Source: Promethearchaeota archaeon (GTDB lineage Archaea > Asgardarchaeota > Lokiarchaeia > Sigyniarchaeales > SOKP01). From it: a stretch of 64,000 nucleotides of DNA. The position numbers and the translations under genes are program-made. The stretch's first letter is position 1. Each line of letters starts with the position of its first letter. Under the pieces are notes generated by a model that was not told the origin of the DNA, searched no databases, and was given only the letters and a program-made list of their open reading frames with translations. The stretch is taken from contig JAHPZA010000007.1 of assembly GCA_019058445.1 (NCBI GenBank), forward strand, positions 1 to 64,000, written 5' to 3'. Below are positions 30,716 to 52,488 of this stretch, one piece after another.

Positions 30716-31321
30716 ATGCCAGTAGATCCCGCAACTGCTGTTTATAATTTAATGCAAGCAGATCCTCATATTATTGCCGCAACGGTTATTTCAGGCTCAA
30801 ATGAAATAATTTATACAACAGATAACTGGGATATAAGTGCGGATATAGGCAGAGTCATTTCAAGTTGGGTTGCTCAGAATGCTCAATTTATAATGGTCTC
30901 TGGAGTAAAGTATTCTATGCTACAATGTGAACCGGAAAGACTCGTTGCTACCTCTATCCGTGGTGAGGGAAGTATTGTAGCTGCAAAAGATGATGAGCAT
31001 AAATTAATTGCTTATCTTGAACCGGATGGATATGCCCCTGGAGCTGCTATGGATGTACAGAGAACGATTACTTCAATGAGTTCTAGATCGCACTATATGG
31101 GAGATGATGCTCAATTAGGTAAAAGTATGCCTGCTGCAGCTTCGGCATCTCCAAGCATAGATCCTCAATTAAAAGGGGAAATTGAAGCATTTTTAGAATG
31201 GATCAAAGATACTGATGGACTTTCGGGCTATATAAATTATTATTTGCAGCAAAATAATGCCCAAATAATATCTGAGCTCTCAAAAATTTATAGTGAGTTA
31301 AGGCAGATTTTTGGAGTTTAA
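30716..31321 (+). CDS. Asgard profilin with C-terminal helical extension
   Basis: TDNWDI...GVKY.....ERLVATS..GEG pattern typical of lokiarchaeal profilins. Confidence 0.8.
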   Translation: MPVDPATAVYNLMQADPHIIAATVISGSNEIIYTTDNWDISADIGRVISSWVAQNAQFIMVSGVKYSMLQCEPERLVATSIRGEGSIVAAKDDEHKLIAYLEPDGYAPGAAMDVQRTITSMSSRSHYMGDDAQLGKSMPAAASASPSIDPQLKGEIEAFLEWIKDTDGLSGYINYYLQQNNAQIISELSKIYSELRQIFGV

Positions 31322-34320: not shown

Positions 34321-34480
34321 GCAGGGATAACCAAGCCTGGTCAACGGTGCCGGACTCTATTGAGATTTATTCTCATAAGCTGGACTCAAGATCTTTAAAA
34401 ATTAATTTCCGTTGATATACCAACTCTGATGAGATATCCGGTCTCATAGGAGTACGTGGGTTCGAATCCCACTCCCTGCA
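34321..34480 (+). tRNA. tRNA-Leu(CAA) with two introns (32/33: 34356-34385; 37/38: 34391-34435)
   Basis: Long variable arm; BHB central helices CCGG/CTGG and CTCA/TGAG. Confidence 0.9.
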
Positions 34481-34486
34481 TCTAAT

Positions 34487-34604
34487 GCGGGAATTGCCAA
34501 GTCTGGTTAATGGTGTTTTCGAGCTTTTTCGAAAGCCGACTTGAGGCGCTGGACTTAGAATCCAGTCTTGTAGAAGTTCGGGGGTTCAAATCCCTCTTCC
34601 CGCA
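34487..34604 (+). tRNA. tRNA-Leu(TAG) with D-loop intron (21/22: 34511-34543)
   Basis: Cloverleaf after excision; central helix GGTT/GACT with 3-nt bulges. Confidence 0.92.
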
Positions 34605-34776
34605 TAAAAATATTAAAAATGATGAGGGTAATTATTTTCTTGTTTGAAACTCATAATGGAAAATTTTTAATTTCTTAATTGATTTAAACATCTACCTAGC
34701 AAACTAGTTAATTATGATTTTTTTAAAGGAAAAACCTTAGTTAACTATCATTCTAAAATTTGCTGGTATTTACACA

Positions 34777-34881
34777 GCTCTCGTAGTGTAGCTCGGCCAA
34801 AGTCTCCTTGATTCCAAAGGTGACAGCGAGGCATGCTAGGCTTTCACCCTGGTGACCCGGGTTCAAATCCCGGCGAGAGCA
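34777..34881 (+). tRNA. tRNA-Glu(TTC) with D-loop intron (about 34801-34830)
   Basis: Cloverleaf after excision; BHB imperfect so junction approximate. Confidence 0.9.
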
Positions 34882-34917
34882 TCCAACGCTTTATGCGTTT
34901 ATGCATTGGAAAACCAA

Positions 34918-35084
34918 GCCTCCGTAGCTCAGTTAGGTAGAGCACTGAGTATTAATCATGCTCAGCCCGCCCAAAGCACCCGGCTTTCATAATTGATTAC
35001 CAGTATGACCGGAAGTTAACCGGGCGGTCGCATGTTCGATCCATTAGTGATTCGAATTCCGATTCGCTGGATAAGCCGGGGGCG
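34918..35084 (+). tRNA. tRNA-Asn(GTT) with three introns (22/23: 34941-34974; 33/34: 34986-35014; 63/64: 35045-35074)
   Basis: Excision restores a full cloverleaf with G73; central helices CCGG/CCGG and ATCC/GGAT perfect. Confidence 0.9.
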
Positions 35085-35256: not shown

Positions 35257-35595
35257 ATGGAAGGAGGAAAGAAAGGATATATAGTACTCTGGATATTCAT
35301 GGGAATAATTTTATTTATAACTATACTTTATCCCATTTTTGGCATAAATTTAAAATATCAGATTGGAACTGCTATAAGCACAACGCTTATAAAATTAGGA
35401 AGCATTTTGATTATGGTAGGGACTATAATCCTTATTTTAGGCTTTATTATGTTATTTATCTCTGGGACAGGTTCAGGAGCGTTAAAACCAATGTTAATCG
35501 GGTTCTTTTTAATAGTTCTGGGAGTAATACTTATTGATCCGATGGGTACAAGCTATTTCACTCAAGGCAGAGAGGCCCCGAAAGGATATCATTAA
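35257..35595 (+). CDS. Small 3-TM membrane protein
   Basis: ATG after GGTGA SD; the longer ORF from 35032 overlaps the tRNA. Confidence 0.75.
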   Translation: MEGGKKGYIVLWIFMGIILFITILYPIFGINLKYQIGTAISTTLIKLGSILIMVGTIILILGFIMLFISGTGSGALKPMLIGFFLIVLGVILIDPMGTSYFTQGREAPKGYH

Positions 35596-35692
35596 TATTA
35601 ATTAGAATTATGTTAATTCTGCCTTGAATAAAAAATAACATAGTGTTTTTTAGAGATAAAAGTCAAATTCCCACATAAAAAATTCAACAAAT

Positions 35693-35926
35693 TCATACTC
35701 TAAAATATCTTAAACCGGTATATAATCCTGTCATCCACACAAGCATTATACCCGAAACAATAAGTAAAACAGCGTAGCGTTTTGCAAAACGTCCTCCAAT
35801 AATCAACAATACAAATCCAGCAATAAGGCCCAAAAAACCTAATAGTGAAGCAAAAGCAATTAAAAATTGAATTGCATCCGCTACTCTTGAAAAATACCCT
35901 GTGTAAATCATTTTAAATTTCCTCAT
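35693..35926 (-). CDS. Small 2-TM membrane protein (VirB2/CedA1 pilin-sized)
   Basis: Two Gly-rich hydrophobic helices joined by a basic loop. Confidence 0.65.
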   Translation of the reverse strand: MRKFKMIYTGYFSRVADAIQFLIAFASLLGFLGLIAGFVLLIIGGRFAKRYAVLLIVSGIMLVWMTGLYTGLRYFRV

Positions 35927-36030
35927 ATTTTAGGGACGCGAAGTATTGTACTTAAGAAGAAGTTAAGTTGAATATATTTAAAAGAAAAATATTGATCTCT
36001 TTTAAGTGATATTTCAAACTAATCTGCTAT

Positions 36031-36828
36031 CTAGTAATATTCGGATAACTTATTATTAACTTTCTCATGAATTTCTCTACAAATATCGGTTTTAATTTCA
36101 TCTGGCACATATTGCATATAAGATTCTACTGTGTGGTTAATAATGGGCTTAATACTGGCCATAAATTTTTCAATTTTGACTTCCTTTGCGAGATATAGTT
36201 TTTCGTAAGTATTTATATAGGACCTATTTAATGTTTTTAGCCAAGTCTGCCCTATAGATTCCAGATTTTTTCTAATTTGAATTGATTTTTTATCATTATA
36301 ATTTTCAAACACCCAATCATATTTTTCAAAAACCTCACTAAAATGATCTAAAATGTAGTCCTGAATTCTTAAACTCAAATCGGTATTCGCATTCAAAAAG
36401 ACGATAATCATGTAATTTTTATCTTGAAAAAATATTTTTATTTTTATGTTAGTACCGCCAATTCCAACATGCCGCAGATTTTCAATTTTTACATTTTCAG
36501 CAAATCCAATCAACGAGCTAAGATACATTGAGATAAAATCTGAAAGATCATCCTGATCTTGATTTAAATATTTTTCAATTGGACCAAATCTATTTCTACT
36601 ATTTCCATCATATTCATATGTTAGTATTGAGATTCCAGCTTTATTAGATAGTATAATACCGATAATTGGGGGGATTTGATTAAAGTTAAATAAAGATAAA
36701 AATGCTCTCCTTGAATTGAGTTCACTTCCAATAAGAAATTTGTCGTAATCATAAGGAATATTAGAACTATTATCAATAACTGGCAAGTTATTTAGAGGTT
36801 TTTCAAACTTATGATCTAATGCTCTCAT
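36031..36828 (-). CDS. Longin/roadblock-like domain protein
   Basis: IIGIILSNKAG.SIL beta-hairpin, helix DFISMYLSSL, three-strand pattern. Confidence 0.6.
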   Translation of the reverse strand: MRALDHKFEKPLNNLPVIDNSSNIPYDYDKFLIGSELNSRRAFLSLFNFNQIPPIIGIILSNKAGISILTYEYDGNSRNRFGPIEKYLNQDQDDLSDFISMYLSSLIGFAENVKIENLRHVGIGGTNIKIKIFFQDKNYMIIVFLNANTDLSLRIQDYILDHFSEVFEKYDWVFENYNDKKSIQIRKNLESIGQTWLKTLNRSYINTYEKLYLAKEVKIEKFMASIKPIINHTVESYMQYVPDEIKTDICREIHEKVNNKLSEYY

Positions 36829-36936
36829 TGTTGATTAATATAAAATACAAAATTCGCTTATAAGAAGAATAGACAGAAAGTTTTGTAATTTGAAAATCCT
36901 ATAATTTTTTCGTGAAATGCGGGTTTCATGAAGATT

Positions 36937-36952
36937 TATATATATCCCGATA
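36937..36952 (-). promoter_or_regulatory. TCG-type BRE/TATA promoter of 36031..36828
   Basis: TATCGGGATATATATA. Confidence 0.5.
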
Positions 36953-37021
36953 TTACCAATTTAAATTATTTTTGTATGAAGAGTCTTTTTTTTTTAAATA
37001 TCTTGGATTTAACAATGATTA

Positions 37022-38557
37022 ATGAGAGCACGTAATAAAACTGTAGTTATGTCAAAGGTTGAAAATTGGATTCAGAAAGGATCAAAATATGTCGAATTAG
37101 GTGATTTCAAAAGTGCTATTGAAATTTTTCAAAAAGGATTAAAAGATGAGCCAGAGAATGAGAAACTTTTACTCAATCTTGGGAATTTATATGATGATAT
37201 AGGGGATTATAATAAAGCAATTGACGTATATAAAAAAATTTTAGGGATGGATGATCAAAATAAAACTGTTTGGTATAATTTAGGAAATTCCTTAAGGAAA
37301 AATAAAGAATTTTACTCTGCTATTAAAGCGTATAAAAGAGTTATTGAAATAGACGTTTACCAATTGAATGCATGGAATAATCTAGGTTGTGTTTATTACG
37401 AGATTGGAGAAAAAGAAAATGCTATTGATATACTCAAAAAAACTTTAAATGTAGATTCAAATTACAAATTAGCCTGGTATAACCTTGCTTGTATATATTC
37501 CCAAATGCGAGAGTATGATAAATCTATTCAAATTTTTAAAAAAGCAATAGAAATTGATCCAGGATACAAAAAGGCATGGGATAAGCTAGAGATTGTTTAT
37601 AAGAGAAAAAATGAATTCACATTTGATTTAAAAAATATAAAAATTCTTAGGGGTGGAGATTGGAAAGTTGAAGGAGATAACAGTATTTTTTATTTTAAAG
37701 TAAAAATAATAAATAACTCACAATATCTTCTTTCTAATATCCAAATAATACTCACTTCAAAACCTAAAGGATTGAAAATAAAACGTGATAGAATTCAAAT
37801 CGAATCACTTAATCCTCATTCATTTATTGCTCCAAGATTTAAATTTAAGGCGAAAGAAAGCTGTGTAGGAGAAATAATAAAGGGAATGACATTATTTATT
37901 GATTATCTTGGAAATAGTCATACAATTGAAATTAAACCATTTAGAATAAAGTATGTATGCAATTTGCTTGTCAAGAAAAAAGTTACCAAAGATGTTTTCT
38001 ATGAAAAAGTATCGAAGATGGATGGCAATAGGATATTATTTGATTGTAAAGGCCAAATTGAAGATATAAATAATATAATTTCAGATATTTTAAAAAAAAA
38101 TAATTTTTATTTATTAAAACAATTACCAGATTATCAAAAAGGAGGTTATAGAAAATTAGAGGGTTTTGCGCAGGGAAAATATGATAATAAAGAGGTAGCA
38201 CTAGCGGTTTATTTAGAACAGAAGTTAAATGAACATACTCAACTAATAATTGATGCAATGAGTGAAGATAAAGCCAAAACAATCGATATTTTAAGAGATA
38301 TAAGCTCGCAATGTAATGAGATAAAGATTAGTACAGAATTAATTAAGGAATACACATCGAAAATAGAGGAAATATTTGAAAGGGTTGACGATCTCGAGTC
38401 TTTTCTGATTAAAAATCTCGGTTCAGATTGGACAAAAGTGAGATATGCTTGGCAAGAATATAAAGAAGGTATAATAGACAAAAAACAATTAATTAAAGAA
38501 TTTATTAAAGTATTAGGCAAAAAATTCATTCTAGCTTTAGTTAAGAAGTTTATCTAG
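37022..38557 (+). CDS. TPR protein with C-terminal beta-sandwich plus alpha/beta platform-like domains
   Basis: About 5 TPRs (W.NLG..Y...A), then a beta-rich region. Confidence 0.8.
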   Translation: MRARNKTVVMSKVENWIQKGSKYVELGDFKSAIEIFQKGLKDEPENEKLLLNLGNLYDDIGDYNKAIDVYKKILGMDDQNKTVWYNLGNSLRKNKEFYSAIKAYKRVIEIDVYQLNAWNNLGCVYYEIGEKENAIDILKKTLNVDSNYKLAWYNLACIYSQMREYDKSIQIFKKAIEIDPGYKKAWDKLEIVYKRKNEFTFDLKNIKILRGGDWKVEGDNSIFYFKVKIINNSQYLLSNIQIILTSKPKGLKIKRDRIQIESLNPHSFIAPRFKFKAKESCVGEIIKGMTLFIDYLGNSHTIEIKPFRIKYVCNLLVKKKVTKDVFYEKVSKMDGNRILFDCKGQIEDINNIISDILKKNNFYLLKQLPDYQKGGYRKLEGFAQGKYDNKEVALAVYLEQKLNEHTQLIIDAMSEDKAKTIDILRDISSQCNEIKISTELIKEYTSKIEEIFERVDDLESFLIKNLGSDWTKVRYAWQEYKEGIIDKKQLIKEFIKVLGKKFILALVKKFI

Positions 38558-38686
38558 ATTTTTTTTTCACTTATATTTTGCCTATTATAGTTTATTTTTA
38601 ATTTAAAGGATAAATCTTCAATCTAATTTTTACTAAACTTAGAACTGAAATTTTTAATGTAGATATTATTCTTTATCTAATACGGA

Positions 38687-38705
38687 TTTTGTCGGAGTTT
38701 TTATA
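38687..38705 (+). promoter_or_regulatory. TCG-type BRE/TATA promoter of the ATPase operon
   Basis: TTTTGTCGGAGTTTTTATA. Confidence 0.55.
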
Positions 38706-38742
38706 TTTAATTCTAAATTATTTTATAAAATTTAGCAGATTA

Positions 38743-41571
38743 ATGATTTTTTTTTCTAAATATCTTATAATTCTCTTAGGTTTTTTAGTATTTTTTCTTC
38801 TCCTAACACCATTCTATTTAAGAATTAAGGAAAAGAGGGAGAAAACAAGAGCTTATGAACTATATTATTTGTTTCTAGGTATTTTGATATACATTTTTTC
38901 TTTTTTAGAAACAGTTATATATCCACTTTCGGATAATTCACCCTTTCTATTAATAATTGAATTAGAAATGGTTTTCATTTTATTTCTTTTCAACATACTG
39001 TATTATTTTAGTCAACAAAACGCTCAAGATGAATGGACTACTATTTTATATCTAAGTATTATCATTTTACTTTCTCACATAGTTATTTGTGGAATTTATT
39101 TATCATTTTTAGTAGGAACTATTATTTCTCTTTTCATTGCATTGTTAAGTTTTACTATCATAATTCCATATAATAAGGACTGGAAATTAAGAGGTAATCT
39201 CATTATTTTTTCCTTATTAATTTATTATTCACTTATAGAAAATATACTCTTTATCTCAATTATTTCATTTTGTATCACTATAACACTTGTTTCCCTTGTA
39301 CACGATGAGATCCGCTTAAGAATTGTAGCTGTATATCCGGGATTGATAATAATTCTTAAGCGTATAATCTTTAGACCTAAAATCCTTATGAATAAATTTA
39401 GCATTATTTCAGATATAGAAAAACCTAAGAATTTAAATACAAATAAAAAAGTTAAGTTTTTCCAAGTAAAAGTTAAAATAATCCAGAGAAAACTTGAACA
39501 AGAACAAGATCCGTTAAATCTATATCAATTGAATGAAAGAAGTTTTTTAATTGATCTTCTCCCAGTAAAAGCCACTTATGTTCTTGAAATTATATCTCAT
39601 AAAAAATTTTCCTTATCATTTATAACAAAACATAGGAATAAAGAAAAAGCTCACGAACAAGGTTTAACGATATTAACTAAATTAAAAAGTCTTTATGAGG
39701 GAATTGATGGGGAAATAAGCGTTATTAAAATCTCTAGCAAGGAAATCTACAAAAAGGATCGATATTGGGAAATTAAAATCCCCAAACCACCATTCATAGA
39801 GAAAATGACGTTTATTAGGGATATTATAAATCTTTTTGATTTAAATGAAGAAAAAATAGAGATTTATATCATGTGGAAGCGAGTCTCATCATTAAACCAA
39901 TTTAGAATAAAAAAAATACGAGAGGATGTAAGAAATATAAAATTTAATGATGCAGATGAGAAGGAGAATTTCTTAGAAATGTGGCAAGGAGATCTTTATA
40001 AATTGAGAATTTTTTTCACTTTCAAAGTCTTTGAAAAAGATGTCAGATTAAGAAATCAAAAAATCCGAGAAATTGAAGCCATGCTAAAGACTCTCGCTAT
40101 GTCAAGTAGAAATGAGACTAAGATAGCTAAAATTAAAAAAGCTTCACCTTTTGCAAATGCAAACATCATAAGTAATAGATTATATGGAGGTCGCTATATA
40201 ACATCTAAAAGCTTGGACTTTGATGTTCTTCATGGAATTCCTTTACCTCGATCTTACGCATTGGAAGATGAGAATATTATTAATTTGGATGTAGAAGACC
40301 ATGATTTAAATTATATTTTAATTGGAAATTATATTAGAAATGGACGGGTTTCAGAAAAAAAGATTCCAATTCATAAAAATATATTTAGTCAATCAGTTTT
40401 AATAGGTGGGCAACCGGGTTCAGGAAAGACTTACCTTTTGAGCCAAATTACAAAAGAATTTTATACCAAATGTCCAGATATTGGGATAATGATTATTAAT
40501 TTAGGAAAAGGGAATCAAGAATTACTTTACAAATTTGATAAAATTTATAAATATGGGAAATCAAATTTAAGAGTTCCTTATTTTATCAGGGGAAAATTTC
40601 CAAGAAGGAGTTTACAAGAAACTGCTAAGTATTTAGTTGCTGCGGTTGGGTTAAAAAACATTGTTGAGATAAATATGTTTAATGTAATGCAATTATTTGA
40701 ACAAAAAAGGGGACAGCCCAAAACTGCTAAAGTACTTTTTAATAATTTATTAAAATACTTTGAATTTCGACCATATCATTCCAAATTTCAAACAAATATC
40801 ATAAGAGCGATAGAAAATCGAGTTCTGAGTATGTTATCAGATATGAGACTAGAAAAAACATTAGAATTATATAATAATCCCTATAAAATGCCATCATGGT
40901 TTGAGGAATGGCGAAAGGGTAAAAAAGTATATATTGATTTATCTAGTTGCACAATCTATGAAAAAAGACTATTATGTAATGCAATTTTTCAAATTGTTCG
41001 ATCTTGTGTACCAGATAAGGAGGAAGGTAATCTAAAAAACATCATTCTTCTAGATGAAGCACATCAAATCTTAGAAAAGCCTTCTTTACCTGCTGATCCT
41101 GACGATGATGATTATATTAGCAGACAATCGTTAAAGGATATTTTTAATGAATTATTAAGGGAATTTCGTTCTAAGGGCGTTTCATTTATAATATCAGACC
41201 AAACACCATATACTTTATTCGATTGTGCGACAATATTGCCCAGTTTAAAATTTCTTTTCAGATTAGGACATTTATCGGCGTCTATTATGGGTTCAAATGA
41301 AAAAGAAGAAGCTCTTTTACCAGAACAAGAAAATAGACATTTTATCGTAGTAAACGGTGTAACTGGCGAAAAATATAGAGGAAAAACTCTTGATTTGCCC
41401 ATTCCAACAAGATTATATAATAAAAGGAAGCAATTTGAAAGGGAATATGAAAATACAAACAAATTTTGTCAATTTTGTCATCAGATCATAGATATTGATG
41501 CTGTTTTCTGTCATAGATGTGGGAGCAAATTAATTTATGATACCTTTATAAATTCAAATTCAAAATTATAG
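38743..41571 (+). CDS. Polytopic membrane-anchored HerA/FtsK/VirB4-superfamily ATPase with C-terminal zinc ribbon
   Basis: About 6-7 N-terminal TMs, GQPGSGKT, ILLDEAH, REFRSKG, SDQ, CxxC-CxxC; ATG 38743 preferred because the TTG at 38689 lies within the promoter. Confidence 0.85.
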   Translation: MIFFSKYLIILLGFLVFFLLLTPFYLRIKEKREKTRAYELYYLFLGILIYIFSFLETVIYPLSDNSPFLLIIELEMVFILFLFNILYYFSQQNAQDEWTTILYLSIIILLSHIVICGIYLSFLVGTIISLFIALLSFTIIIPYNKDWKLRGNLIIFSLLIYYSLIENILFISIISFCITITLVSLVHDEIRLRIVAVYPGLIIILKRIIFRPKILMNKFSIISDIEKPKNLNTNKKVKFFQVKVKIIQRKLEQEQDPLNLYQLNERSFLIDLLPVKATYVLEIISHKKFSLSFITKHRNKEKAHEQGLTILTKLKSLYEGIDGEISVIKISSKEIYKKDRYWEIKIPKPPFIEKMTFIRDIINLFDLNEEKIEIYIMWKRVSSLNQFRIKKIREDVRNIKFNDADEKENFLEMWQGDLYKLRIFFTFKVFEKDVRLRNQKIREIEAMLKTLAMSSRNETKIAKIKKASPFANANIISNRLYGGRYITSKSLDFDVLHGIPLPRSYALEDENIINLDVEDHDLNYILIGNYIRNGRVSEKKIPIHKNIFSQSVLIGGQPGSGKTYLLSQITKEFYTKCPDIGIMIINLGKGNQELLYKFDKIYKYGKSNLRVPYFIRGKFPRRSLQETAKYLVAAVGLKNIVEINMFNVMQLFEQKRGQPKTAKVLFNNLLKYFEFRPYHSKFQTNIIRAIENRVLSMLSDMRLEKTLELYNNPYKMPSWFEEWRKGKKVYIDLSSCTIYEKRLLCNAIFQIVRSCVPDKEEGNLKNIILLDEAHQILEKPSLPADPDDDDYISRQSLKDIFNELLREFRSKGVSFIISDQTPYTLFDCATILPSLKFLFRLGHLSASIMGSNEKEEALLPEQENRHFIVVNGVTGEKYRGKTLDLPIPTRLYNKRKQFEREYENTNKFCQFCHQIIDIDAVFCHRCGSKLIYDTFINSNSKL

Positions 41572-41584
41572 TAGGTAATATATT

Positions 41585-42271
41585 ATGAGTGAAATAAATA
41601 GTGATGAATATGAGGAATACGAGGAATATGAAGGAGAGCAAGATGAATCAGAAGAAAATGAACAAAATAAAGAACTTCAAGTGGATTATGGATATGATCA
41701 AGAAAAAGAACAAGAAGATAAACTTAAAGTAGATTATGGATACGATCAAGAAAAAGAACAAGAAGATAAGCTCCAAGTAGATTATGGATGCGATCAACAA
41801 GAAGAACAAAAAAAAAAAGATCATATTGATAAAAAAAATAATGAAATAAGATCAGAAGAAGATAAATTCAAATCAGAAAAAGGAGCTTTATTTGGAGGAG
41901 AAAAATCGAAGGAGAATTTATACAAGACTAATAATAATATTACAGAAAAGGATAAAATTAAGGATTTAGAAGAAAAAAAAAATGAGTCAGAAAACAAAAT
42001 AAAAAACCAGAAAAAACAAAGTTCTAAAGATAAAAGGGGTAAAAGAGGTAAAAGAGGCAGAAGAGGCAAGCGTGGACGTCGAGGGAAGAGTGGTAAGTCT
42101 AAAGGAGGTATGTTAGATTTTAGAACATTAAAAAAAGAGAAAAAGGAAGAGAAGAAAAAACGAGGAGTATTTAAGAAAACAGAGGAAGAAATAAAAGAAG
42201 AAATTAGAAAAGAAATATATAAACAACTTCAAGATGAACAAATTAAGAGAAAGGCAGGTATATTAAGATGA
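41585..42271 (+). CDS. Low-complexity bipolar protein (acidic N-terminus, basic C-terminus)
   Basis: SD AGGT; E/D-rich then K/R-rich; stop overlaps the next start (ATGA). Confidence 0.75.
   Translation: MSEINSDEYEEYEEYEGEQDESEENEQNKELQVDYGYDQEKEQEDKLKVDYGYDQEKEQEDKLQVDYGCDQQEEQKKKDHIDKKNNEIRSEEDKFKSEKGALFGGEKSKENLYKTNNNITEKDKIKDLEEKKNESENKIKNQKKQSSKDKRGKRGKRGRRGKRGRRGKSGKSKGGMLDFRTLKKEKKEEKKKRGVFKKTEEEIKEEIRKEIYKQLQDEQIKRKAGILR
41670..41810 (+). repeat. Three tandem 48-bp (16-aa) coding repeats
   Basis: LQVDYGYDQEKEQEDK-like unit x3. Confidence 0.85.
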
Positions 42272-43173
42272 AAAGAGGTCAATCTGTTTCAGAGGGATTA
42301 AAGCAATACAAAAAAACGATGTCAGAAAAATTTAGTGATTGGAAAGAAGATTCTTATGGGCCTTGGAAAGAAGAGACCTATAAGCCATGGAAAAAAGAAT
42401 TTTCTAAGAATGTGAAACGATTTAATAAACAATTCAAAAAGATGCTTGTCCGTTGGAAGAGGAATATGTTAGAAAAATATAAGCAATGGCGTAAGAATAA
42501 GGTAAAAAGAGAAGCAGGGTTGCAGATAAAAATAAAAAACATAGAAAAGGTGGAAATAGGGAATAAAAAGATCAATTACCATAATCATCTCAATTATTTC
42601 CCTTCAAATGAGGGGCCTACAGAATTTGAGTATCAGAATATTCGAGAGAGAAATACGTTTCCTGTAAGAAATCAATATCCGGAAATTGAAGATCGATATT
42701 ATTATGAGAAAACTGCATACAATTTGGATGAAGATATTAGATCACAGAAATATTTAGGATATGATCGAGGAAAGGGAATTCAAAAAAATGTTGATTTTAA
42801 TAGTTTATTTCGGGATTTTGCCCTAATTCAGGATTTACTGAGAACGAAATCACATCAAGAAATTTTTATTAAATGTCGTTATTTAATTGAGTCTTTTCTC
42901 GAGAAAATTGCGGATATGATTGGAATTCAATATAGAAATGTCCAACATTTCTTAGCAAGCTTAACAAATATGAATCTTAAGAGAAAATTCATATTCTATG
43001 ATGAGATTATTGGGTATACTAAGTTTTTAAATGCAAATCTACATAATGTAGATAGGTTCATGGCTCACTCAATTTATATCCTTACGAAAAGAATTATTAA
43101 CAAATTAGAAAGCATTTTGAGTAGAAAATCGAATAATAATTTTTATTCAGAATATGGAGAAATCTTTCATTAA
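42268..43173 (+). CDS. Hypothetical protein; Trp/Lys-rich N-terminus, possible degenerate HEPN (DUF4145-like) C-terminus
   Basis: CRYLIESFL and LNANLH resemble the R..LE and RNxxxH motifs. Confidence 0.55.
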   Translation: MKRGQSVSEGLKQYKKTMSEKFSDWKEDSYGPWKEETYKPWKKEFSKNVKRFNKQFKKMLVRWKRNMLEKYKQWRKNKVKREAGLQIKIKNIEKVEIGNKKINYHNHLNYFPSNEGPTEFEYQNIRERNTFPVRNQYPEIEDRYYYEKTAYNLDEDIRSQKYLGYDRGKGIQKNVDFNSLFRDFALIQDLLRTKSHQEIFIKCRYLIESFLEKIADMIGIQYRNVQHFLASLTNMNLKRKFIFYDEIIGYTKFLNANLHNVDRFMAHSIYILTKRIINKLESILSRKSNNNFYSEYGEIFH

Positions 43174-43288
43174 TACTCAACTGATTCAATTCAATTTTTT
43201 TTATTACTTATCTTTAAAGCTTGTTGTAGTTTAAATAATTTAAATCCAAATATAGAGTATATTATTTAGCTAAAATTATCAGATTATT

Positions 43289-43624
43289 ATGACTCAAGAA
43301 TATAAAAATTGTCCTCGTTGCAATGGGAAGAAGATTGTAGATTTAGATAACAAAATAAAATGTTTAGATTGTAAGTTAACGTTTGATAAAAAAATCATTA
43401 AGTTAATTGAAGATAAAGCATATATCTTGGCAAATGAGGAAAATGAGGAAATTCTTAAGGAAATATTAGATTCTAAAAATATTAATGAATTTATAGATTT
43501 GTTAAATGAAGTTGATGGAAATTTTTCACACTGCCCCTATTGTTTTGGAAAAATAGAAAAACAGCTTAAAATTTGTCCCTCTTGCGGAATTTTCTTAGAA
43601 GATTATGCAAAAATTAAGAATTAG
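43289..43624 (+). CDS. Double zinc-ribbon protein
   Basis: Four CxxC pairs. Confidence 0.75.
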   Translation: MTQEYKNCPRCNGKKIVDLDNKIKCLDCKLTFDKKIIKLIEDKAYILANEENEEILKEILDSKNINEFIDLLNEVDGNFSHCPYCFGKIEKQLKICPSCGIFLEDYAKIKN

Positions 43625-43685
43625 CAAAATTATGATAATTTATACTAATTTAGAATTTTAAATTTTCTTTCCAATGTAACACTAG

Positions 43686-43704
43686 TTTTGTCGGGATTTT
43701 TATA
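43686..43704 (+). promoter_or_regulatory. TCG-type BRE/TATA promoter, probably leaderless
   Basis: TTTTGTCGGGATTTTTATA ending 21 nt before the ATG at 43726. Confidence 0.6.
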
Positions 43705-43725
43705 GCTATATTTAGAACTAAATCG

Positions 43726-44340
43726 ATGATATCTCAGGAAAATTCAGATTCTTCGGACCCATTTTCCGTTTTTCAATCGGTAAATGACGCCATAGTGGGA
43801 ATATTAGTCCCATTTAACGAGATTTGTATCAATATTTTTCGTTTTGGAAACTGGATTTTATTTCTTATTTTTATATTTTTAGGAGTAAATCTATTAATGA
43901 GTGCCCATGAAAAAGAAACTGAAGAAAGAATTCACGGAAAAAACTTAGAGTATATTCAAAAAAGAGGTCGTATTGGATCTTTTATTTTAATTTTAATAGC
44001 CATTGGTTTCTTATTCAAAGGACTAACGATACTAACGATAATTAGCTTTAGTTCATTTTCAGCTCCGCCCGTTTTTCGATGGCTAAAATGTCAATATCTA
44101 TATAATAATATAAGTACGTTAGAGGACCTGAAAAAGTATGATGTCTTTGAAGTAAGTTTATTTCTATTTATTAGTTTAGTGTCTTTCATTTCAATAATTC
44201 TAATTAGTTTTGGTATTTATCTTCTTCTTTTTAATAAGAGAATTCTTAGAACACATTATAAAGCTTGTTCATTCATTGTTATTGGAGTTATTTTAGCTTG
44301 TATCTTTGGGATTACTCCAGGATTACTCCTAACTTTGTGA
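43726..44340 (+). CDS. 4-TM membrane protein, paralog of 47812..48429
   Basis: Four hydrophobic helices; shared AIG..F...PP.F..L and FG..P motifs. Confidence 0.75.
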   Translation: MISQENSDSSDPFSVFQSVNDAIVGILVPFNEICINIFRFGNWILFLIFIFLGVNLLMSAHEKETEERIHGKNLEYIQKRGRIGSFILILIAIGFLFKGLTILTIISFSSFSAPPVFRWLKCQYLYNNISTLEDLKKYDVFEVSLFLFISLVSFISIILISFGIYLLLFNKRILRTHYKACSFIVIGVILACIFGITPGLLLTL

Positions 44341-44379
44341 GATGTTCATAAAGGAATTATGATTTAAAGCTTAATATAA

Positions 44380-44904
44380 TTATGATTTTAATTGTTTTTC
44401 ATATAAATCTTTGATATATTCATTTAATTCTTTAAATTTCATTTCATTAATCGTCGTTAATTTATCTTCTTCCCAGTTAAAGGTAGTCATACTCTTATCT
44501 GGTTTATGGTTGAATTCTAAATCTTCATACTTAGGTACAAAATCCTCATTAAAATCCTCTTGATCCTTAAATTCATCATCTTCTTCTATAGTGTTATCAA
44601 TTGCCTCATATTCACTAAAAGATAACCTTTTTAGAAAAAAATATACTAAAATACAAAGAAAGATAAACACAAGATTACTTGGAATTACTGTTTCTGAGGT
44701 TAAAATTACATCTGTTTTATTATACAAATTAGGAAGTGAATTTAGGATATAAAAACTCACTGATAACAATATTAACACAGTTATTACGAGCTTTAATCTG
44801 TGAAATGTAGGTTGATAAGCTTGAACTTTATAGAAAACGGCTATTGAAATAGCTAAAGCTGTAGTTAAAATAACAAATGTTAAAAATAATTCGAATGTGA
44901 CCAT
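44380..44904 (-). CDS. 3-TM membrane protein with acidic tail
   Basis: Hydropathy pattern. Confidence 0.7.
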   Translation of the reverse strand: MVTFELFLTFVILTTALAISIAVFYKVQAYQPTFHRLKLVITVLILLSVSFYILNSLPNLYNKTDVILTSETVIPSNLVFIFLCILVYFFLKRLSFSEYEAIDNTIEEDDEFKDQEDFNEDFVPKYEDLEFNHKPDKSMTTFNWEEDKLTTINEMKFKELNEYIKDLYEKQLKS

Positions 44905-44972
44905 CTCTATCTTTTTCTCTTTATGATCCTATAAATCGCCTTATCGATATCAATTAATTATTTAAAATTAAG

Positions 44973-44988
44973 TATAAAAAGTTCGAGA
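44973..44988 (-). promoter_or_regulatory. TCG-type BRE/TATA promoter of 44380..44904
   Basis: TCTCGAACTTTTTATA on the minus strand. Confidence 0.5.
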
Positions 44989-45190
44989 TTTATCCATGGC
45001 AGTTATAAAAAGTAAGTAAATTTACTAAACCAGTTTTTTTTTTAAATTGAGAAATTTATATTTTTATAAGATTAGACTAATTAGATCTTTTTGTCGATAA
45101 TACTTCGATTTTATAATTTTCATTTTATTATTTTACAAATGAGCTAACAGTGAGATTAAATAGATTACATAGTTTTAAGTAATAAGCAAA

Positions 45191-46717
45191 TTAATCTTTA
45201 AAATAATTAAAAATAACTTTAAGAATTAAGTCTTTAAAACATTTTAACACTTTTTCCCCTTCTAACGCGCATACTGGATACACTACTAAAGAACCATCAG
45301 GATATTTAATTTCGTTAGGTAGATTTAAGATTCTTTTAAATATATCTAATGAAATCGCATTATCTAAATCTCTCTTATTTAGTTGCACGTTTATAGGGAC
45401 TCTGAGATGTCCAATGGTATTTATTAGTTCCTGAAAGCTTTGTTTGTTTTGTTCCATCTTGGAAGGATCAGAATCACCTATAAAAATCACTCCGTCAGCG
45501 CCCTCAAGGATCCGCCTGCGAGCTACCGAAAAATTTTCAAGGGCAGGAACAGTTACAATTTGAATAATTACCCCATATTTAGTATCCTCAATTTCAAACT
45601 TTAATAAAATATACTGAGAATCATGCCACAGTGTTGAACCGTTAGTGGTTTCAATGGAATATCCTTTGGTTAAATTCATAGATGAAAATTTTTTTTGTAG
45701 TAACTTAAAATTAGAGGTTTTTCCGGATTTAGAAGGGCCCCAAAAAATTATTCTAAATTGTAGGATTTCATCACAATTTTTTAAGCTTCGATTATCTTTA
45801 GCTTTTTCAATTTCATGATCTATATACTTAGTTAATTCTTTATATCGTTTCCTAATCGTAGCTTCGGTTACTCCAGCTGCTAAAGAAATTTCTTTTTGGG
45901 TTCTTCGTTCTCCCTCCTGTAGCGCAGCAAAATAGAGTGCCCCCCCAGCAAGCCCAGCAGGAGTTTTTCCGGCGGTGAGTCGATACTTTTTTGCTAAATT
46001 TAATATTTTCGTGGCACGATTTTTCGTATTTTCTGAGAGATTAAGATTAGCTGCAAATTTGGGAATATAACTTAAAGGTGAACTTGCATTAAGATTTAGC
46101 TTTAATTCTCTGAAGACAAGTCTATAACACCGGGCTAGTTTTTTTTTCTCAATAGCAGTAAATTCCAAAAAGTCTTCAATAATTTTGGGGACATTATTAA
46201 TTTTGCATGCTGTATAAATTGAAGCTATCACAATGGCCTCAATGGATCGACCTTTAGCAAGATGCATTACTTTTCTATAAATATGAGCTGAAGATTCCTT
46301 TAGATATTTTGGCAAATTCATTTGAGATGAGATTCTGTCTAATTGAGTCATTGCTTCCGCTAAGTTTTTCTCTTTAGGCGTATAAATCATCGATCTTTTA
46401 TTCCAAGTTCTTAGCCTTTTGATTTCTCCAATCATTTTCGGACTAATTTTGTTCCCTTTAGCATCTCGATTCGATTTTCCAATGACCGTGTTTAAACCTT
46501 TATCATATTGCATTAAATTCGTTGGAGCTCCGATTCTAACTTTTTTTGCCTTATCTTCTGAGTTAAAAGCACGCCAATCAACCCCAGAATTAATAAGATG
46601 TTGCTTAATTACCAATCCACATGCGTTACAAATGATTTCGCCGCGAAAAGCATCATTTATTAATATTTCATTCCCACATTCAGGACATATATCTGAAACT
46701 TTTTCTGCGACATTCAT
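45191..46717 (-). CDS. TFB paralog fused to a C-terminal MglA-like small GTPase
   Basis: Complete TFB (aa 1-300), then GPSKSGKT, GADGVIF, NKRD, CAL. Confidence 0.92.
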   Translation of the reverse strand: MNVAEKVSDICPECGNEILINDAFRGEIICNACGLVIKQHLINSGVDWRAFNSEDKAKKVRIGAPTNLMQYDKGLNTVIGKSNRDAKGNKISPKMIGEIKRLRTWNKRSMIYTPKEKNLAEAMTQLDRISSQMNLPKYLKESSAHIYRKVMHLAKGRSIEAIVIASIYTACKINNVPKIIEDFLEFTAIEKKKLARCYRLVFRELKLNLNASSPLSYIPKFAANLNLSENTKNRATKILNLAKKYRLTAGKTPAGLAGGALYFAALQEGERRTQKEISLAAGVTEATIRKRYKELTKYIDHEIEKAKDNRSLKNCDEILQFRIIFWGPSKSGKTSNFKLLQKKFSSMNLTKGYSIETTNGSTLWHDSQYILLKFEIEDTKYGVIIQIVTVPALENFSVARRRILEGADGVIFIGDSDPSKMEQNKQSFQELINTIGHLRVPINVQLNKRDLDNAISLDIFKRILNLPNEIKYPDGSLVVYPVCALEGEKVLKCFKDLILKVIFNYFKD

Positions 46718-46881
46718 TATAACTAACTTTTAACATCATATAAAATAGAAATTATAAAAAATACACGAAAATAGGTTAGACATCCAGGCTTTATTAAATT
46801 CAAGAAAATGTTTGTATAAAAACAAGTCACTAGAAAAAGTTTAAAATTTTTTCTTTAAATAGGCTTAAAATACAGAAGGAT

Positions 46882-47289
46882 ATGATTAAGACTGAAATAA
46901 GATATGAAAAATCGCTTGGAAGACTGAAATGTGATATTTGTGACACTAGATTTCGAGAAAACGCAAGGATTTATAAAGTTAATAATGACATAGGGTATGT
47001 TTGCCAACAATGCAATGATAATTTTTCTAAGGAAGATATATATCTGATTATAGACTTGTTTAAATCTTATGGCGGGTATTTTGGGAAATTCGATGATATA
47101 AAATTATCCTTAGATAATATTTTAACGGAATTTTATGATAGAATTTCGGCTGACGGTAATTTAAAAAACACTTTCGAATATAATAGGAAATTATGTCATA
47201 AAGCACTGCTAAATGGCTATACCCCTAAACAGCTTATTCAAAAAATGAAAGTTCCAAAAAATTATAAACTTAAAAAACGCACCATTTAG
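46882..47289 (+). CDS. Zinc-finger hypothetical protein
   Basis: CDIC...CQQC; divergent from the TFB fusion. Confidence 0.7.
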   Translation: MIKTEIRYEKSLGRLKCDICDTRFRENARIYKVNNDIGYVCQQCNDNFSKEDIYLIIDLFKSYGGYFGKFDDIKLSLDNILTEFYDRISADGNLKNTFEYNRKLCHKALLNGYTPKQLIQKMKVPKNYKLKKRTI

Positions 47290-47811: not shown

Positions 47812-48429
47812 TTGCCAAAAGATCTATTAGTGTTTAAAATTTTTGAGATTGGTGATTCTGATGATATCTTCTTCATAATTAATCAGGGAATACTTATGTT
47901 CTTTTTCTTTTTGAAATATATATTTATTTTCATCCTCTTAATGATATCTTTACTAACATTAACAAAATTAAGAGGAATTTATCTGCATGAAAGATATAAT
48001 AAATTAGAGGAGAGTGAAAACAAATTGCTGAAACCCCGATTAATTTTGGGTATAACATATCTTTTTCTGGCAATTGGTATCGCTTTTAATTTTCTGATTT
48101 ATTTTTTAATATGGATATCATATTTTCTTCCACCGCCATTAATTTTCCAGCTTCTGGATGTTATTGATCCGGGATTCTATGATCCTAATAGGATTCGCGA
48201 TCCCAATAAGAATAAATATGAATTCGAGCGATTTATTTATCTTCTATTTGCATTAGCATCTTTTGAAGCATGCCTGCATTTAATCTTGACAATATGGTAT
48301 TTAATAAATAATAATAGAAATATTAGCAATCCTAGAGTAGTTATTCATAATTTAATTTGGTCTCTTTCTGTTTCAATTGTTTTTGGATTCTTAACCTTCG
48401 CACCATACTTTTTGCGGGCAACTTGGTGA
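47812..48429 (+). CDS. 4-TM membrane protein, paralog of 43726..44340
   Basis: GAGGT SD, TTG start, four TMs. Confidence 0.75.
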   Translation: MPKDLLVFKIFEIGDSDDIFFIINQGILMFFFFLKYIFIFILLMISLLTLTKLRGIYLHERYNKLEESENKLLKPRLILGITYLFLAIGIAFNFLIYFLIWISYFLPPPLIFQLLDVIDPGFYDPNRIRDPNKNKYEFERFIYLLFALASFEACLHLILTIWYLINNNRNISNPRVVIHNLIWSLSVSIVFGFLTFAPYFLRATW

Positions 48430-48519: not shown

Positions 48520-49926
48520 ATGACTGAAAGCAAAGGAAGTAAAGATCCATCTAATTTTAAAAATATAGAGCAAGAAGTCTTGAGGTTTCTTGATTCCAGA
48601 GGGTCAATTCGTGCAGCTCTTCTGCACAAGATCGAGAAACATTTTTGCGGTCAGAAATCCATTATAAATCTTCGTAAAGAGTTTTTATTATCATGTCTTT
48701 GGCAGATAGCTAAGGATAAGAAGATAGAAATAATTATCCCTGAGCTATTCCGCGTTAAATGGAGTCAAAAAAAGCTAACAAATTTAAAATATTTAAAGGA
48801 TGGGATTTATCTATGTAGAAAGTTTCCGATGATTCGAAATAAACTTCTTAAATCTATTTTAAATAATTATTACTTTGATTCAAGAAAGAGAAGTTTTAGT
48901 GAATTAGATCAAGGAATAGAATATCTTAAATTAATTTTAGAGAAGGTAAGAAATTTTAACAAAAAGATAATCATATATAACCCTTTAGGCAGCAATCCAT
49001 TGGATATTTATGAAGAGAAGGCTCAATTTAATTATAAATTACAAAAAGCTAATTTTCAAATAAAACAAGATAACATGATTAAGGAAAAGTTAGATATTCC
49101 TTCAGAAGACCGGGCAGAGGCCTTGGCAGTAGTTCAAGGATATAGAAGTAGATATATGTGCTTTTATATTCCTTTAATTGAATCTATTTTAAAGACTATA
49201 GAGTATATTCAAGTACATAAGGAAGATCTTTCAGATTATGAAAAAGTTTTACAAGACTACACGGAAAAATTTGCCTATAATTGTATAGAATTTGTTAAGT
49301 CTGATTATATTGAAATAGAGCCAAATCCTTTAAGATGGGAAAGCATCTTCAACTATTTAGATCTTCCTATAAAAATTCTTGAGTATGATTTTAAATATAT
49401 TAAATTTCATGGAAGAACATGGGAAAATTATCAAATACTTAAAATTTGTATATATATTGAAAAACAAAAATCGAGTATTATAAAAAAATTGAAGAAATTA
49501 GGCTATGAAGAATTTCCTGAGGAAAATTATGATGATCTTATTGCTATTGGTTTAAATATAGAGATCTATTATCCTTGCTCTACAATCGAGCATATCTATT
49601 TTTTAAGTAAATTTATATGCTTCTATTATTTGTTTCTGTTATTTTATCACTCTTTTGAATACATCAAGGAAGTAAAACCGAAGATTCGCTTTACAAAGAA
49701 GGAGAAGAGTTTATATACAAAATTTTTACCAGTGCTTACAAAGTTATTTAATTTAAATGAAAGTGAAAGTAAAGTTTCAAGGAAACTAGTTTTTAAATAT
49801 TATACCCTTGATCCTGATGAACTGGAAATAATTTTTAATCACTTTTTAATTAAAAGACTTAAAGAGATTGAAAAAAAATTGTTTTATTGGTGGAGATATA
49901 AAACAACTCTACTTAAACCGGCTTAA
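48520..49926 (+). CDS. Hypothetical protein
   Basis: 468-aa ORF with no recognised motif. Confidence 0.7.
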   Translation: MTESKGSKDPSNFKNIEQEVLRFLDSRGSIRAALLHKIEKHFCGQKSIINLRKEFLLSCLWQIAKDKKIEIIIPELFRVKWSQKKLTNLKYLKDGIYLCRKFPMIRNKLLKSILNNYYFDSRKRSFSELDQGIEYLKLILEKVRNFNKKIIIYNPLGSNPLDIYEEKAQFNYKLQKANFQIKQDNMIKEKLDIPSEDRAEALAVVQGYRSRYMCFYIPLIESILKTIEYIQVHKEDLSDYEKVLQDYTEKFAYNCIEFVKSDYIEIEPNPLRWESIFNYLDLPIKILEYDFKYIKFHGRTWENYQILKICIYIEKQKSSIIKKLKKLGYEEFPEENYDDLIAIGLNIEIYYPCSTIEHIYFLSKFICFYYLFLLFYHSFEYIKEVKPKIRFTKKEKSLYTKFLPVLTKLFNLNESESKVSRKLVFKYYTLDPDELEIIFNHFLIKRLKEIEKKLFYWWRYKTTLLKPA

Positions 49927-50722: not shown

Positions 50723-52348
50723 CTAAGTTATTTTCAATGGTATTGTTTTATAAGGAGTTTTCGCTTTTACCGATTTATTTAATGTTTTGTCATATAAGTT
50801 GAGTAATTTAGAAAACGTTCTTCTATACCAAATGTGCTTTGTAATGGAATAAAAGGGATTTTTGAATTCCTTCTGTGCTTTAAAGATGGAATCTACTATT
50901 GAAAAAATTTCTTGTATTGATTTGGAAAAGGATAAATGCTTACTTGGTCTTATTACAGCACAATAAAGATACTGTTCTTTATTAAATATCTTCCACCACT
51001 GTTTGTAATAATATTTGGCTCCAAACATTGCTTCTCCTTTATCATAAATTGTACTCCCAATTAATAAGCCGTATATGCCTATATGTAAATTAACCTTATA
51101 TCTTTCCATAATTCCTTGTCCATCATAATTTTTATCAAAAAAGAAACTCCGGCTCTCTTTGAAAGTATTTATATCGGCACCAGGTAATCCTAACATATAA
51201 AAGAATATAACAGGGGTATCAATTTCATTAGCATATTCGATAATTTTTAATACTTTTTCTAAAAATGTTAATGCTCCTTTATTGATATCTGCTGAAGTTC
51301 TTCCCAGATTCTTACCAATCCTTGAGAGCAGCTTTTTTGATGTTGTTTCTAACCCTATTCCTGGAATTATATTAAACTTTTTAAACTTTTTCAGATCAGA
51401 TATGGAGCAAGTCTCCACTCGTTCAAATATATAAGTTTTGAATGAAATCTTATGATAAATCTTCTCCAATTCTTTAAAAAACTGATCCTTTACATTTCTA
51501 GAGAAAAAGATAGGGTCAACAATAAATAAATTTTCAAAATTTAACCACTTTGTATCTAAAATAATATTTAGTTCTTTAATACAATTCTCTAATGATTTAT
51601 ATCTGACTCTTCTATAACTAGGCATATAGTTTTCAGAAGGCGGGCAAAATTTACACCTGAATTGGCAGCCCCTTCTCCATTGAATATAAAAATCACCAAT
51701 CTCTCGAATTCTTTCTTTATACTTCTCGAATAAACTCAAATCTATGATAGGGACTTCATTTAAATTTTCTAATATTTCCCTTTGTAAAATGACTGGATTT
51801 TCATAGACTCCATTTCTCATCTGATTAGTTCCATTTGATATTCGTTGAACTAAATGATAAAAAGGGATTTCACCTTCATCAAGTATAATGTAATCGACTG
51901 GTGTTGTATTTTGAGGATAGAATTCATCAAAATAATGCGGTATATTTTCAATAAAAAGGTCTTCTGGACATACTGAAGCATGATAGCCTCCAAAGACAAT
52001 ATAACAAGAGGAATCTATTAAGTGCTTTATCATTTTAGCGATCTCAATGGAATTAAGATAGCAAAATGAAGTATAGCACGATATCGCTGCAATATCGAAC
52101 TTAAACCTCTTATAAATCTTTTTCAATAAGTTTCTCAATGCATCTCGATATTCTCCAATCTCTTCTGGCCAGTAATGAGGTAACCCTTCTATTCTTAAAT
52201 CAACATACTCCTCTTCGATCTCTCCGTTAATTTTATGCTTTTTAGAGTTTAGATAATTACTAATACGTATAAAGGGTTCTGTACAAAAGTGAGCTTTTCC
52301 CCAGGATTCAAATGGTTGTAGATAAAGTATTCTTATTTTTTTACTCAT
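50723..52348 (-). CDS. B12-binding radical SAM protein
   Basis: GGYHAS, GEIP, RGCQFRCKFC, GLET. Confidence 0.9.
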   Translation of the reverse strand: MSKKIRILYLQPFESWGKAHFCTEPFIRISNYLNSKKHKINGEIEEEYVDLRIEGLPHYWPEEIGEYRDALRNLLKKIYKRFKFDIAAISCYTSFCYLNSIEIAKMIKHLIDSSCYIVFGGYHASVCPEDLFIENIPHYFDEFYPQNTTPVDYIILDEGEIPFYHLVQRISNGTNQMRNGVYENPVILQREILENLNEVPIIDLSLFEKYKERIREIGDFYIQWRRGCQFRCKFCPPSENYMPSYRRVRYKSLENCIKELNIILDTKWLNFENLFIVDPIFFSRNVKDQFFKELEKIYHKISFKTYIFERVETCSISDLKKFKKFNIIPGIGLETTSKKLLSRIGKNLGRTSADINKGALTFLEKVLKIIEYANEIDTPVIFFYMLGLPGADINTFKESRSFFFDKNYDGQGIMERYKVNLHIGIYGLLIGSTIYDKGEAMFGAKYYYKQWWKIFNKEQYLYCAVIRPSKHLSFSKSIQEIFSIVDSIFKAQKEFKNPFYSITKHIWYRRTFSKLLNLYDKTLNKSVKAKTPYKTIPLKIT

Positions 52349-52488
52349 TTTACTTCTTTTTTTTATTTTTTGTATGAATATATCTAACGACTCACATATT
52401 TTATTTAGCTAAGTATATAAACAACATCAAAAGCCAAAAAAAATAAAACATTTTATAGGAGGATTGCTAAGGAAAGCAATCTCATTAA

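Follow-up and report, generated by a model that had tools for sequence, protein, structure and literature searches.

A tRNA-Asn(GUU) gene with three introns outside the canonical site in an uncultured Loki-type Asgard archaeon

Results

Structure of the interrupted tRNA-Asn gene

A tRNA-Asn(GUU) gene composed of four exons (23, 11, 30 and 10 nt) and three introns lies on the forward strand at positions 34918-35084 of the 64,000-nucleotide stretch of DNA analysed here (the window), and it is highly probable that this is a functional and apparently sole gene for its tRNA, with lineage-specific introns that are spliced by EndA and RtcB and have no demonstrated function of their own. The bases of this reading are the exon structure, the splice motifs, their compensatory conservation and the presence of the enzyme genes, from which we infer splicing, its order and the recognition of intron 1. 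The source genome (G000) amounts to 4.61 Mb in 10 contigs, with a G+C content of about 31% and a completeness of 92.6%; the genomes that neighbour it are MAGs deposited as Promethearchaeota/Promethearchaeia, and it belongs to the Asgard archaea.

When the four exons were joined, the resulting 74 nt were called as tRNA-Asn(gtt) by ARAGORN, with all stems intact. The spliced molecule has an acceptor stem of 7 bp (one of them G.U), a D stem of 4 bp, and anticodon and T stems of 5 bp each; it carries G18G19, an additional nucleotide 17a in the D loop, the T-loop TTCGATC and the discriminator G73, and its GUU anticodon sits inside a 7-nt loop together with C32, U33, A37 and A38. CCA is not encoded. 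The preliminary description of this DNA had read a triple-intron tRNA-Asn(GTT) with no intron at the canonical site and a last exon of only 10 nt, and the flawless joined cloverleaf bears out that reading in both respects. In the unspliced window, by comparison, no Asn gene was reported by ARAGORN (default and -i) or by the Rfam tRNA model at its gathering threshold.

In Sprinzl numbering the introns interrupt the tRNA at 22/23 (34 nt), 33/34 (29 nt) and 63/64 (30 nt); the canonical 37/38 site is uninterrupted, all three introns being elsewhere. Exon 1 (34918-34940) comprises nt 1-22, 23 nt with 17a, and supplies the acceptor 5' strand, the D-stem 5' strand, the D loop and G22. It is followed by intron 1 (34941-34974), which has a relaxed motif, an internal hairpin of 7-8 bp and the 3' tail CCGCCC. 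Exon 2 (34975-34985; 11 nt, nt 23-33) contributes the remainder of the D stem, A26, the anticodon-stem 5' strand, C32 and U33, and is separated by intron 2 (34986-35014) from exon 3 (35015-35044; 30 nt, nt 34-63), which begins with the anticodon GUU and continues through the anticodon-stem 3' strand, the variable loop, the T-stem 5' strand, the T loop and C61-U63. Intron 3 (35045-35074) lies within the T-stem 3' strand, and exon 4 (35075-35084; nt 64-73) provides G64, C65, the acceptor 3' strand and the discriminator. From its sequence, a candidate archaeal TATA element, consisting of two overlapping TTTATGC boxes, may be placed 14-28 nt upstream of the gene (34890-34904, forward strand).

Canonical splice motifs in introns 2 and 3

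Because the cloverleaf fixes the exon boundaries, the splice motif provides an independent test of the gene structure. At the exact splice sites of introns 2 and 3 we found two 3-nt bulges, a 4-bp central helix and a flanking helix. Intron 2 has the central helix CCGG/CCGG (4 of 4 pairs), the 5-bp inner helix UCAUA/UAUGA and the bulges CU|U and AA|G; intron 3 has the central helix AUCC/GGAU (likewise 4 of 4), the 5-bp inner helix AGUGA/UCGCU and the bulges AU|U and AA|G. The central helices are formed by exon nucleotides, CCGG at nt 28-31 for intron 2 and AUCC at nt 58-61 for intron 3, paired with the intron bases that precede the 3' bulge. Two perfect 4-bp central helices with AA|G 3' bulges had been noted previously, and it is to introns 2 and 3 that this observation applies.

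Each intron was then shuffled 100,000 times with its boundaries held fixed, and the shuffles were scored for a 4/4 central helix together with an inner helix of at least 4 bp; the motif arose at frequencies of 1.4e-4 for intron 2 and 1.9e-4 for intron 3. When the full precursor was folded with RNAfold, the central helix of intron 2 had a pair probability of 1.00 and that of intron 3 one of about 0.8, and the minimum-energy fold of the whole precursor contained the motifs of both introns. The mirror topology of the motif was considered as an alternative and rejected, as it fitted none of the three introns.

Compensatory changes in the splice helices

To follow the helices across orthologues (8-13 sequences), we used pair tables anchored on the splice sites, since MAFFT alignments put gaps inside helices. 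Of the cells in these tables, 79% were paired for intron 1, 95% for intron 2 and 80% for intron 3, against 23-46% in a control in which the partner strand was slid by 1-3 nt. Pair 1 of the intron 3 inner helix occurs as AT, TA or CG and pair 3 as five types; pair 2 of its central helix is U-A, U.G or G-C. In G043 and G077 the change is in the exon itself, a U59>G substitution in the T loop that is matched by an intron base C, where the other orthologues have A or G. For intron 2, pairs 1-3 flip between helices of the TA/CG/AT type and the AT/GC/GC type. Such double-sided changes are frequent, and we therefore consider the splice motifs to be conserved and under selection, and not the product of random insertion.

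Intron 1 and the case for a decayed gene

The position of intron 1 is not fixed by sequence alone: with AGCA present at each end, the cut may be drawn at any point in the range 22/23 to 27/28. We chose the register 22/23, which gives the relatives with a short-type intron 1 a canonical motif. In this register the intron of the window has three of four central pairs (AGGU/GCCC), with an A.C mismatch beside the 3' bulge, and its inner helix is interrupted, with 1 bp and a 2x2 loop preceding the 7-8 bp hairpin. RNAfold assigned the central helix of intron 1 a probability near 0 in every splicing state; it goes unpredicted since the intron supplies an AGC of its own on which the D stem can close. 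A long-type intron 1 of this kind is present in G000, G001/G005, G007 and G008 and also in G024, which belongs to another genus.

The weakness of this motif bears on whether the gene is still in use. It could be supposed that the gene is a decaying pseudogene, or that intron 1 is unspliceable, and that Asn is decoded by a gene missing from the assembly; intron 1 does lack a canonical motif, the assembly is 92.6% complete, and the congener bin G007 contains two tRNA-Asn genes. The exons, however, are intact and form a perfect cloverleaf identical or nearly identical to intronless orthologues, the long-type intron 1 with its hairpin is conserved in at least five genomes of two genera, and several searches yielded no second Asn gene. 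We consider decay or failure to splice intron 1 extremely improbable, and retain the reading of a functional gene.

The searches for another copy took several forms. No second Asn gene was found in the assembly when the mature sequence and the sister family's intronless type served as blastn-short queries, nor in a scan for contiguous GUU anticodon arms or in the ARAGORN list; candidate Asn anticodon arms on contigs 10 and 6 were rejected as ordinary non-tRNA sequence. The Rfam tRNA model gave 26 matches at E<=1, which are untyped by isotype and do not include the tRNA-Asn of the window. As no other Asn gene was found, the decoding of Asn codons appears to rest wholly on three splicing events, although with the assembly at 92.6% completeness a second gene could lie in unassembled DNA.

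Splicing enzymes and a proposed route to mature tRNA-Asn

Genes for both splicing enzymes were identified in the assembly. An EndA homologue with both domains is encoded on contig 9 at 770313-770918 (PF01974, 2.9e-18, plus PF02778), and RtcB on contig 1 at 114713-116020 (2.6e-172). Asgard archaea have been described as possessing a broad-specificity (alpha-beta)2 EndA with an L1 loop, so that two paralogues are expected (PMC5829648); no second (beta) EndA paralogue was found in G000, relaxed Pfam searches included. An ORF on contig 3 with an E value of 0.05 was rejected as an EndA subunit, since, on inspection, its DLGCGNG motif suggests a SAM-methyltransferase.

We propose that a 167-nt precursor would be transcribed from the tRNA-Asn gene and that EndA would cut it in the bulges of three motifs of the bulge-helix-bulge type. 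Introns 2 and 3 would offer canonical HBh' motifs built partly of exon sequence (nt 28-31 and nt 58-61, respectively), and intron 1 would offer a relaxed motif only. RtcB would then join the four exons, and CCA would be added later.

Predicted pairing between intron 1 and the anticodon stem

The 3' end of the long-type intron 1, CCGCCC, is complementary to exon nt 41-46 (GGGCGG). Pairing of this tail with G41-G46 would occupy the partner strand of the anticodon stem and would thereby leave nt 28-31 free for the central helix of intron 2; the long-type intron 1 might in this way help or order the splicing of intron 2, a suggestion that we make tentatively and hold to be rather unlikely. The predicted minimum-energy fold of the precursor has a 6-bp clamp enclosing the intron 2 motif, and the predicted probability of the intron 2 central helix was 1.00 with intron 1, 0.56 when intron 1 was removed and 0.29 for intron 2 alone; the same was predicted for G001 (0.99-1.00). 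In G024 the tail reads CCACCC and the exon GGGUGG, a double change that retains all six pairs. This is, however, a single compensatory event, and its G>A change also improves a pair of the intron 1 central helix (from U20.G to U20-A). Moreover, intron 2 is also present in relatives with a short-type, tail-less intron 1 (G006, G004, G019, G010 and G012), and the basis of the proposal is thermodynamic prediction throughout. That long-type D-arm introns would serve as folding helpers for the anticodon-loop intron, with exon and intron co-evolving as in G024, is in our judgement unlikely.

Zero to four introns in orthologous tRNA-Asn genes

We aligned the mature tRNA-Asn, allowing for splicing, to about 50 orthologous loci. 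Several closed genomes are known in the order, and in the sister family, which includes closed genomes, tRNA-Asn is uninterrupted and its acceptor stem differs. The number of introns in the orthologous gene ranges from 0 to 4 within the family of the window. It is intronless in G018, G013 and G071, and the mature sequence of the window's tRNA-Asn is also found in intronless orthologues (L014 and L015). The 63/64 intron occurs alone in G022, G043, G056, G059 and G077, and an intron at 59/60 or 57/58 alone in several genomes. The combination 22/23, 33/34 and 63/64 is shared by G000 and G006, and that of the canonical 37/38 site with 63/64 is seen in G003 and on contig 85 of G007. Four introns (22/23, 33/34, 59/60 and 63/64), which set apart a 4-nt exon CCAT, are present in G012 (L012, minus strand) and G024 (L009, 1501-1698).

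Position 63/64 had been described as unusual; the survey contradicts this, as introns were found there in at least 14 genomes of 4 genera, and within the family no other T-arm site of tRNA-Asn is interrupted as often. The 63/64 introns have the loop TCGATTTCC in common and for that reason look homologous; a related form is found at 59/60, and the loop was seen only within tRNA-Asn.

Several further observations were made on the orthologues. In G012 and G024 the 63/64 motif draws on bases of the adjacent 59/60 intron, a hint that the two are cut in order or simultaneously. In G008, G001 and G005 (L003, L004 and L005, respectively) the insert at 63/64 is 60 nt long and resembles a directly adjoining pair of units, each about 30 nt in length, of which the first ends in GGGAAA like the single 63/64 introns and the second contains a CCCC/GGGG hairpin of its own; these inserts may be tandem introns at one site. 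The two tRNA-Asn genes of the G007 bin differ in their introns, which lie at 22/23, 33/34 and 57/58 in L002 (contig 210) and at 37/38 and 63/64 in L153 (contig 85). The 5' part of the window's gene is 97% identical to L002 and its 3' part 98% identical to L153, and an origin of the window's gene by recombination between the two G007 alleles was considered. Outside the gene, the G007 contigs have only about 75% identity to each other and to the window; they are separate loci or separate populations within the bin, and the two-part match of the window's gene may stem from paralogy, mixed populations or recombination.

A variable block downstream of tRNA-Asn

The similarity of the window to its congeners ends at the last base of tRNA-Asn, and the arrangement upstream is syntenic. 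The gene had been said to border an accessory region, and tRNA-Asn is indeed the last conserved feature before a variable block. In the congener G003, about 170 nt separate tRNA-Asn from homologues of window positions 47812-48429 and 48520-49926 and of the radical SAM gene; since the G003 gene thus adjoins homologues of the window from 47812 onward, about 12.7 kb (35085 to about 47800, the right edge being approximate) are extra in the window and missing at this site in G003. In G001, G005, G006 and G008, the place after tRNA-Asn is taken by other genes, whose homologues in G000 are located on contig 6. The extra block has a lower G+C content (0.25-0.29), and its 960-aa P-loop ATPase has homologues in 13 of 41 relatives, at no more than 44% identity.

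This neighbourhood bears on the idea, put forward by Randau and Söll in 2008 (cited in PMC4090602 and PMC4033280), that an intron is kept because, by breaking attB, it protects the gene from tRNA-targeting integrases; the preliminary description had likewise inferred that an intron in the 3' part would destroy the usual attB. The 63/64 intron does leave only 10 nt of contiguous tRNA sequence on its 3' side, the flank is variable among congeners and carries patchily distributed genes, integration beside tRNA genes has been documented in Asgard archaea (PMC8813620), and the hypothesis itself has been published (PMC4090602 and PMC4033280). Against these points, none of the 16 ORFs scanned within 35257-47289 matched an integrase or recombinase in Pfam or PHROGs, although several had no match at all and a novel recombinase may be among them. 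Neither in its spliced nor in its unspliced form did the tRNA 3' end recur anywhere in the window at up to 3 mismatches; the sole shared word of at least 12 nt is an AT-rich 12-mer. Congeners that all have an intron or introns at 63/64 show three different downstream neighbourhoods, so this intron has not kept the flank stable: the flank has changed despite the intron, or else in a way independent of attB. In addition, mobile elements were not found to be enriched around gained Asgard tRNA introns in a 2026 preprint (Goswami et al.), and the attP of an element could carry the intron too. With the block devoid of an integrase or recombinase match, the window devoid of an att-like copy of the gene's 3' end, and the flank varying in spite of the intron, the inference of attB destruction is unsupported, and we regard protection from integrases as the reason for the intron's retention as very unlikely. 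We therefore keep to the reading of lineage-specific introns with no demonstrated function of their own.

The 960-aa P-loop protein of the extra block (38689-41571, forward strand) matches HerA/AAA weakly at about residues 556-600 and has a zinc ribbon at its C terminus; the protein is multi-copy in G019, and a 32%-identical relative with one in-frame stop is found on contig 6 of G000. A 508-aa ORF (45191-46717, reverse strand) combines a complete TFIIB, with zinc ribbon and two cyclin-like repeats, and a small GTPase of the Arf family (Pfam).

Neighbouring genes in the window

The tRNA-Asn gene is the last of four interrupted tRNA genes, which form a Leu-Leu-Glu-Asn cluster at 34321-35084; housekeeping genes, for aspartate-semialdehyde dehydrogenase and a DeoC-type aldolase, are likewise found upstream of tRNA-Asn. 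A class II tRNA body occupies 34321-34480 and was earlier read as Leu(CAA) with two introns. It is followed by Leu(UAG) at 34486-34606 and by Glu(UUC) at 34776-34882, each interrupted by about 30 nt, which in Leu(UAG) come after the D arm and in Glu(UUC) fall within the D loop. The three genes are mistaken by ARAGORN -i for Trp, Lys and Val, and ARAGORN deletion scans favour Leu(tag) and Glu(ttc) among them.

Elsewhere in the window, a 201-aa ORF at 30716-31321 (forward strand) has a weak match to profilin (PF00235, E 2.7e-4, below the curated cut-off) and may encode an Asgard profilin. B12-binding and radical SAM domains occur in two adjacent paralogous ORFs at 50723-54033 (reverse strand), 541 and 514 aa in length, and an archaeal 23S rRNA gene is represented by its 5' third at the start of the window and contig (1-1032, reverse strand).

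Discussion

Heavily interrupted tRNA genes have been published for Asgard archaea. Interruption of over 90% of the tRNA genes of a genome, in many cases multiple and at non-canonical sites, was described in 2024 (PMC11291895), and Goswami et al. (2026, bioRxiv 10.64898/2026.10.13.758758) reported up to five inserts per gene, repeated gains, D-arm inserts that are missed by software and T-arm inserts with strong motifs, the gained introns being unassociated with mobile elements. The tRNA-Asn of the window resembles these multi-intron tRNAs (PMC11291895; bioRxiv 10.64898/2026.10.13.758758) in having several non-canonical introns of about 20-35 nt in one gene, in the weaker motifs of its D-arm introns, which annotators miss, and in the strong canonical motifs of its T-arm introns; gains and losses likewise recur among relatives, and no link to mobile elements was found. 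Those studies centre on Atabeyarchaeia and Jordiarchaeia/Freyarchaeia, whereas the gene described here belongs to an uncultured Loki-type family.

Outside the Asgard archaea, multi-intron tRNA genes were described in the Thermoproteales in 2007-2008, with 22/23 as one of the listed sites (PMC4090602). These are also multi-intron tRNA genes spliced by proteins (Sugahara 2007, 2008; reviewed in PMC4090602, PMC4033280, PMC8450103), in which as many as three introns interrupt one gene, for example at 22/23, 53/54, 56/57 and 59/60; their relaxed motifs are cut by a broad-specificity EndA, and some of the introns need ordered removal. Position 63/64 is absent from the sites listed in the reviews consulted (PMC4090602, PMC4033280, PMC8450103). 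The Thermoproteales belong to a different phylum, and their intron families have transposed between tRNA types, whereas here similar introns were seen only within tRNA-Asn. With integration of the SSV type, as treated in the Randau and Söll hypothesis, the present case shares the argument that attB within a tRNA gene is disrupted when the gene is split or contains an intron; in contrast to such integration, no integrase, att site or provirus was detectable, and only the premise of a variable flank applies.

The tRNA-Asn of the window thus fits the published Asgard picture in every respect tested, and both the phenomenon and the attB idea have been published. The value of the finding lies in annotation and in a comparative intron series, and it brings no new mechanism and no new question. 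For annotation, an essential tRNA was missed entirely by ARAGORN and by the Rfam tRNA model; because such standard tools miss the gene, annotations of G000 would wrongly lack tRNA-Asn.

Within the family itself, an uncultured one of a Loki-type order (Promethearchaeales), the introns would be inherited and subject to turnover, and would persist where the surrounding tRNA sequence permits a splice motif. A series from zero to four introns in one orthologous gene, which includes a 4-nt micro-exon and a compensatory change between exon and intron, could be useful for the study of how tRNA introns are gained and lost and how spliceability is kept in the Asgard archaea, the closest prokaryotic relatives of eukaryotes.
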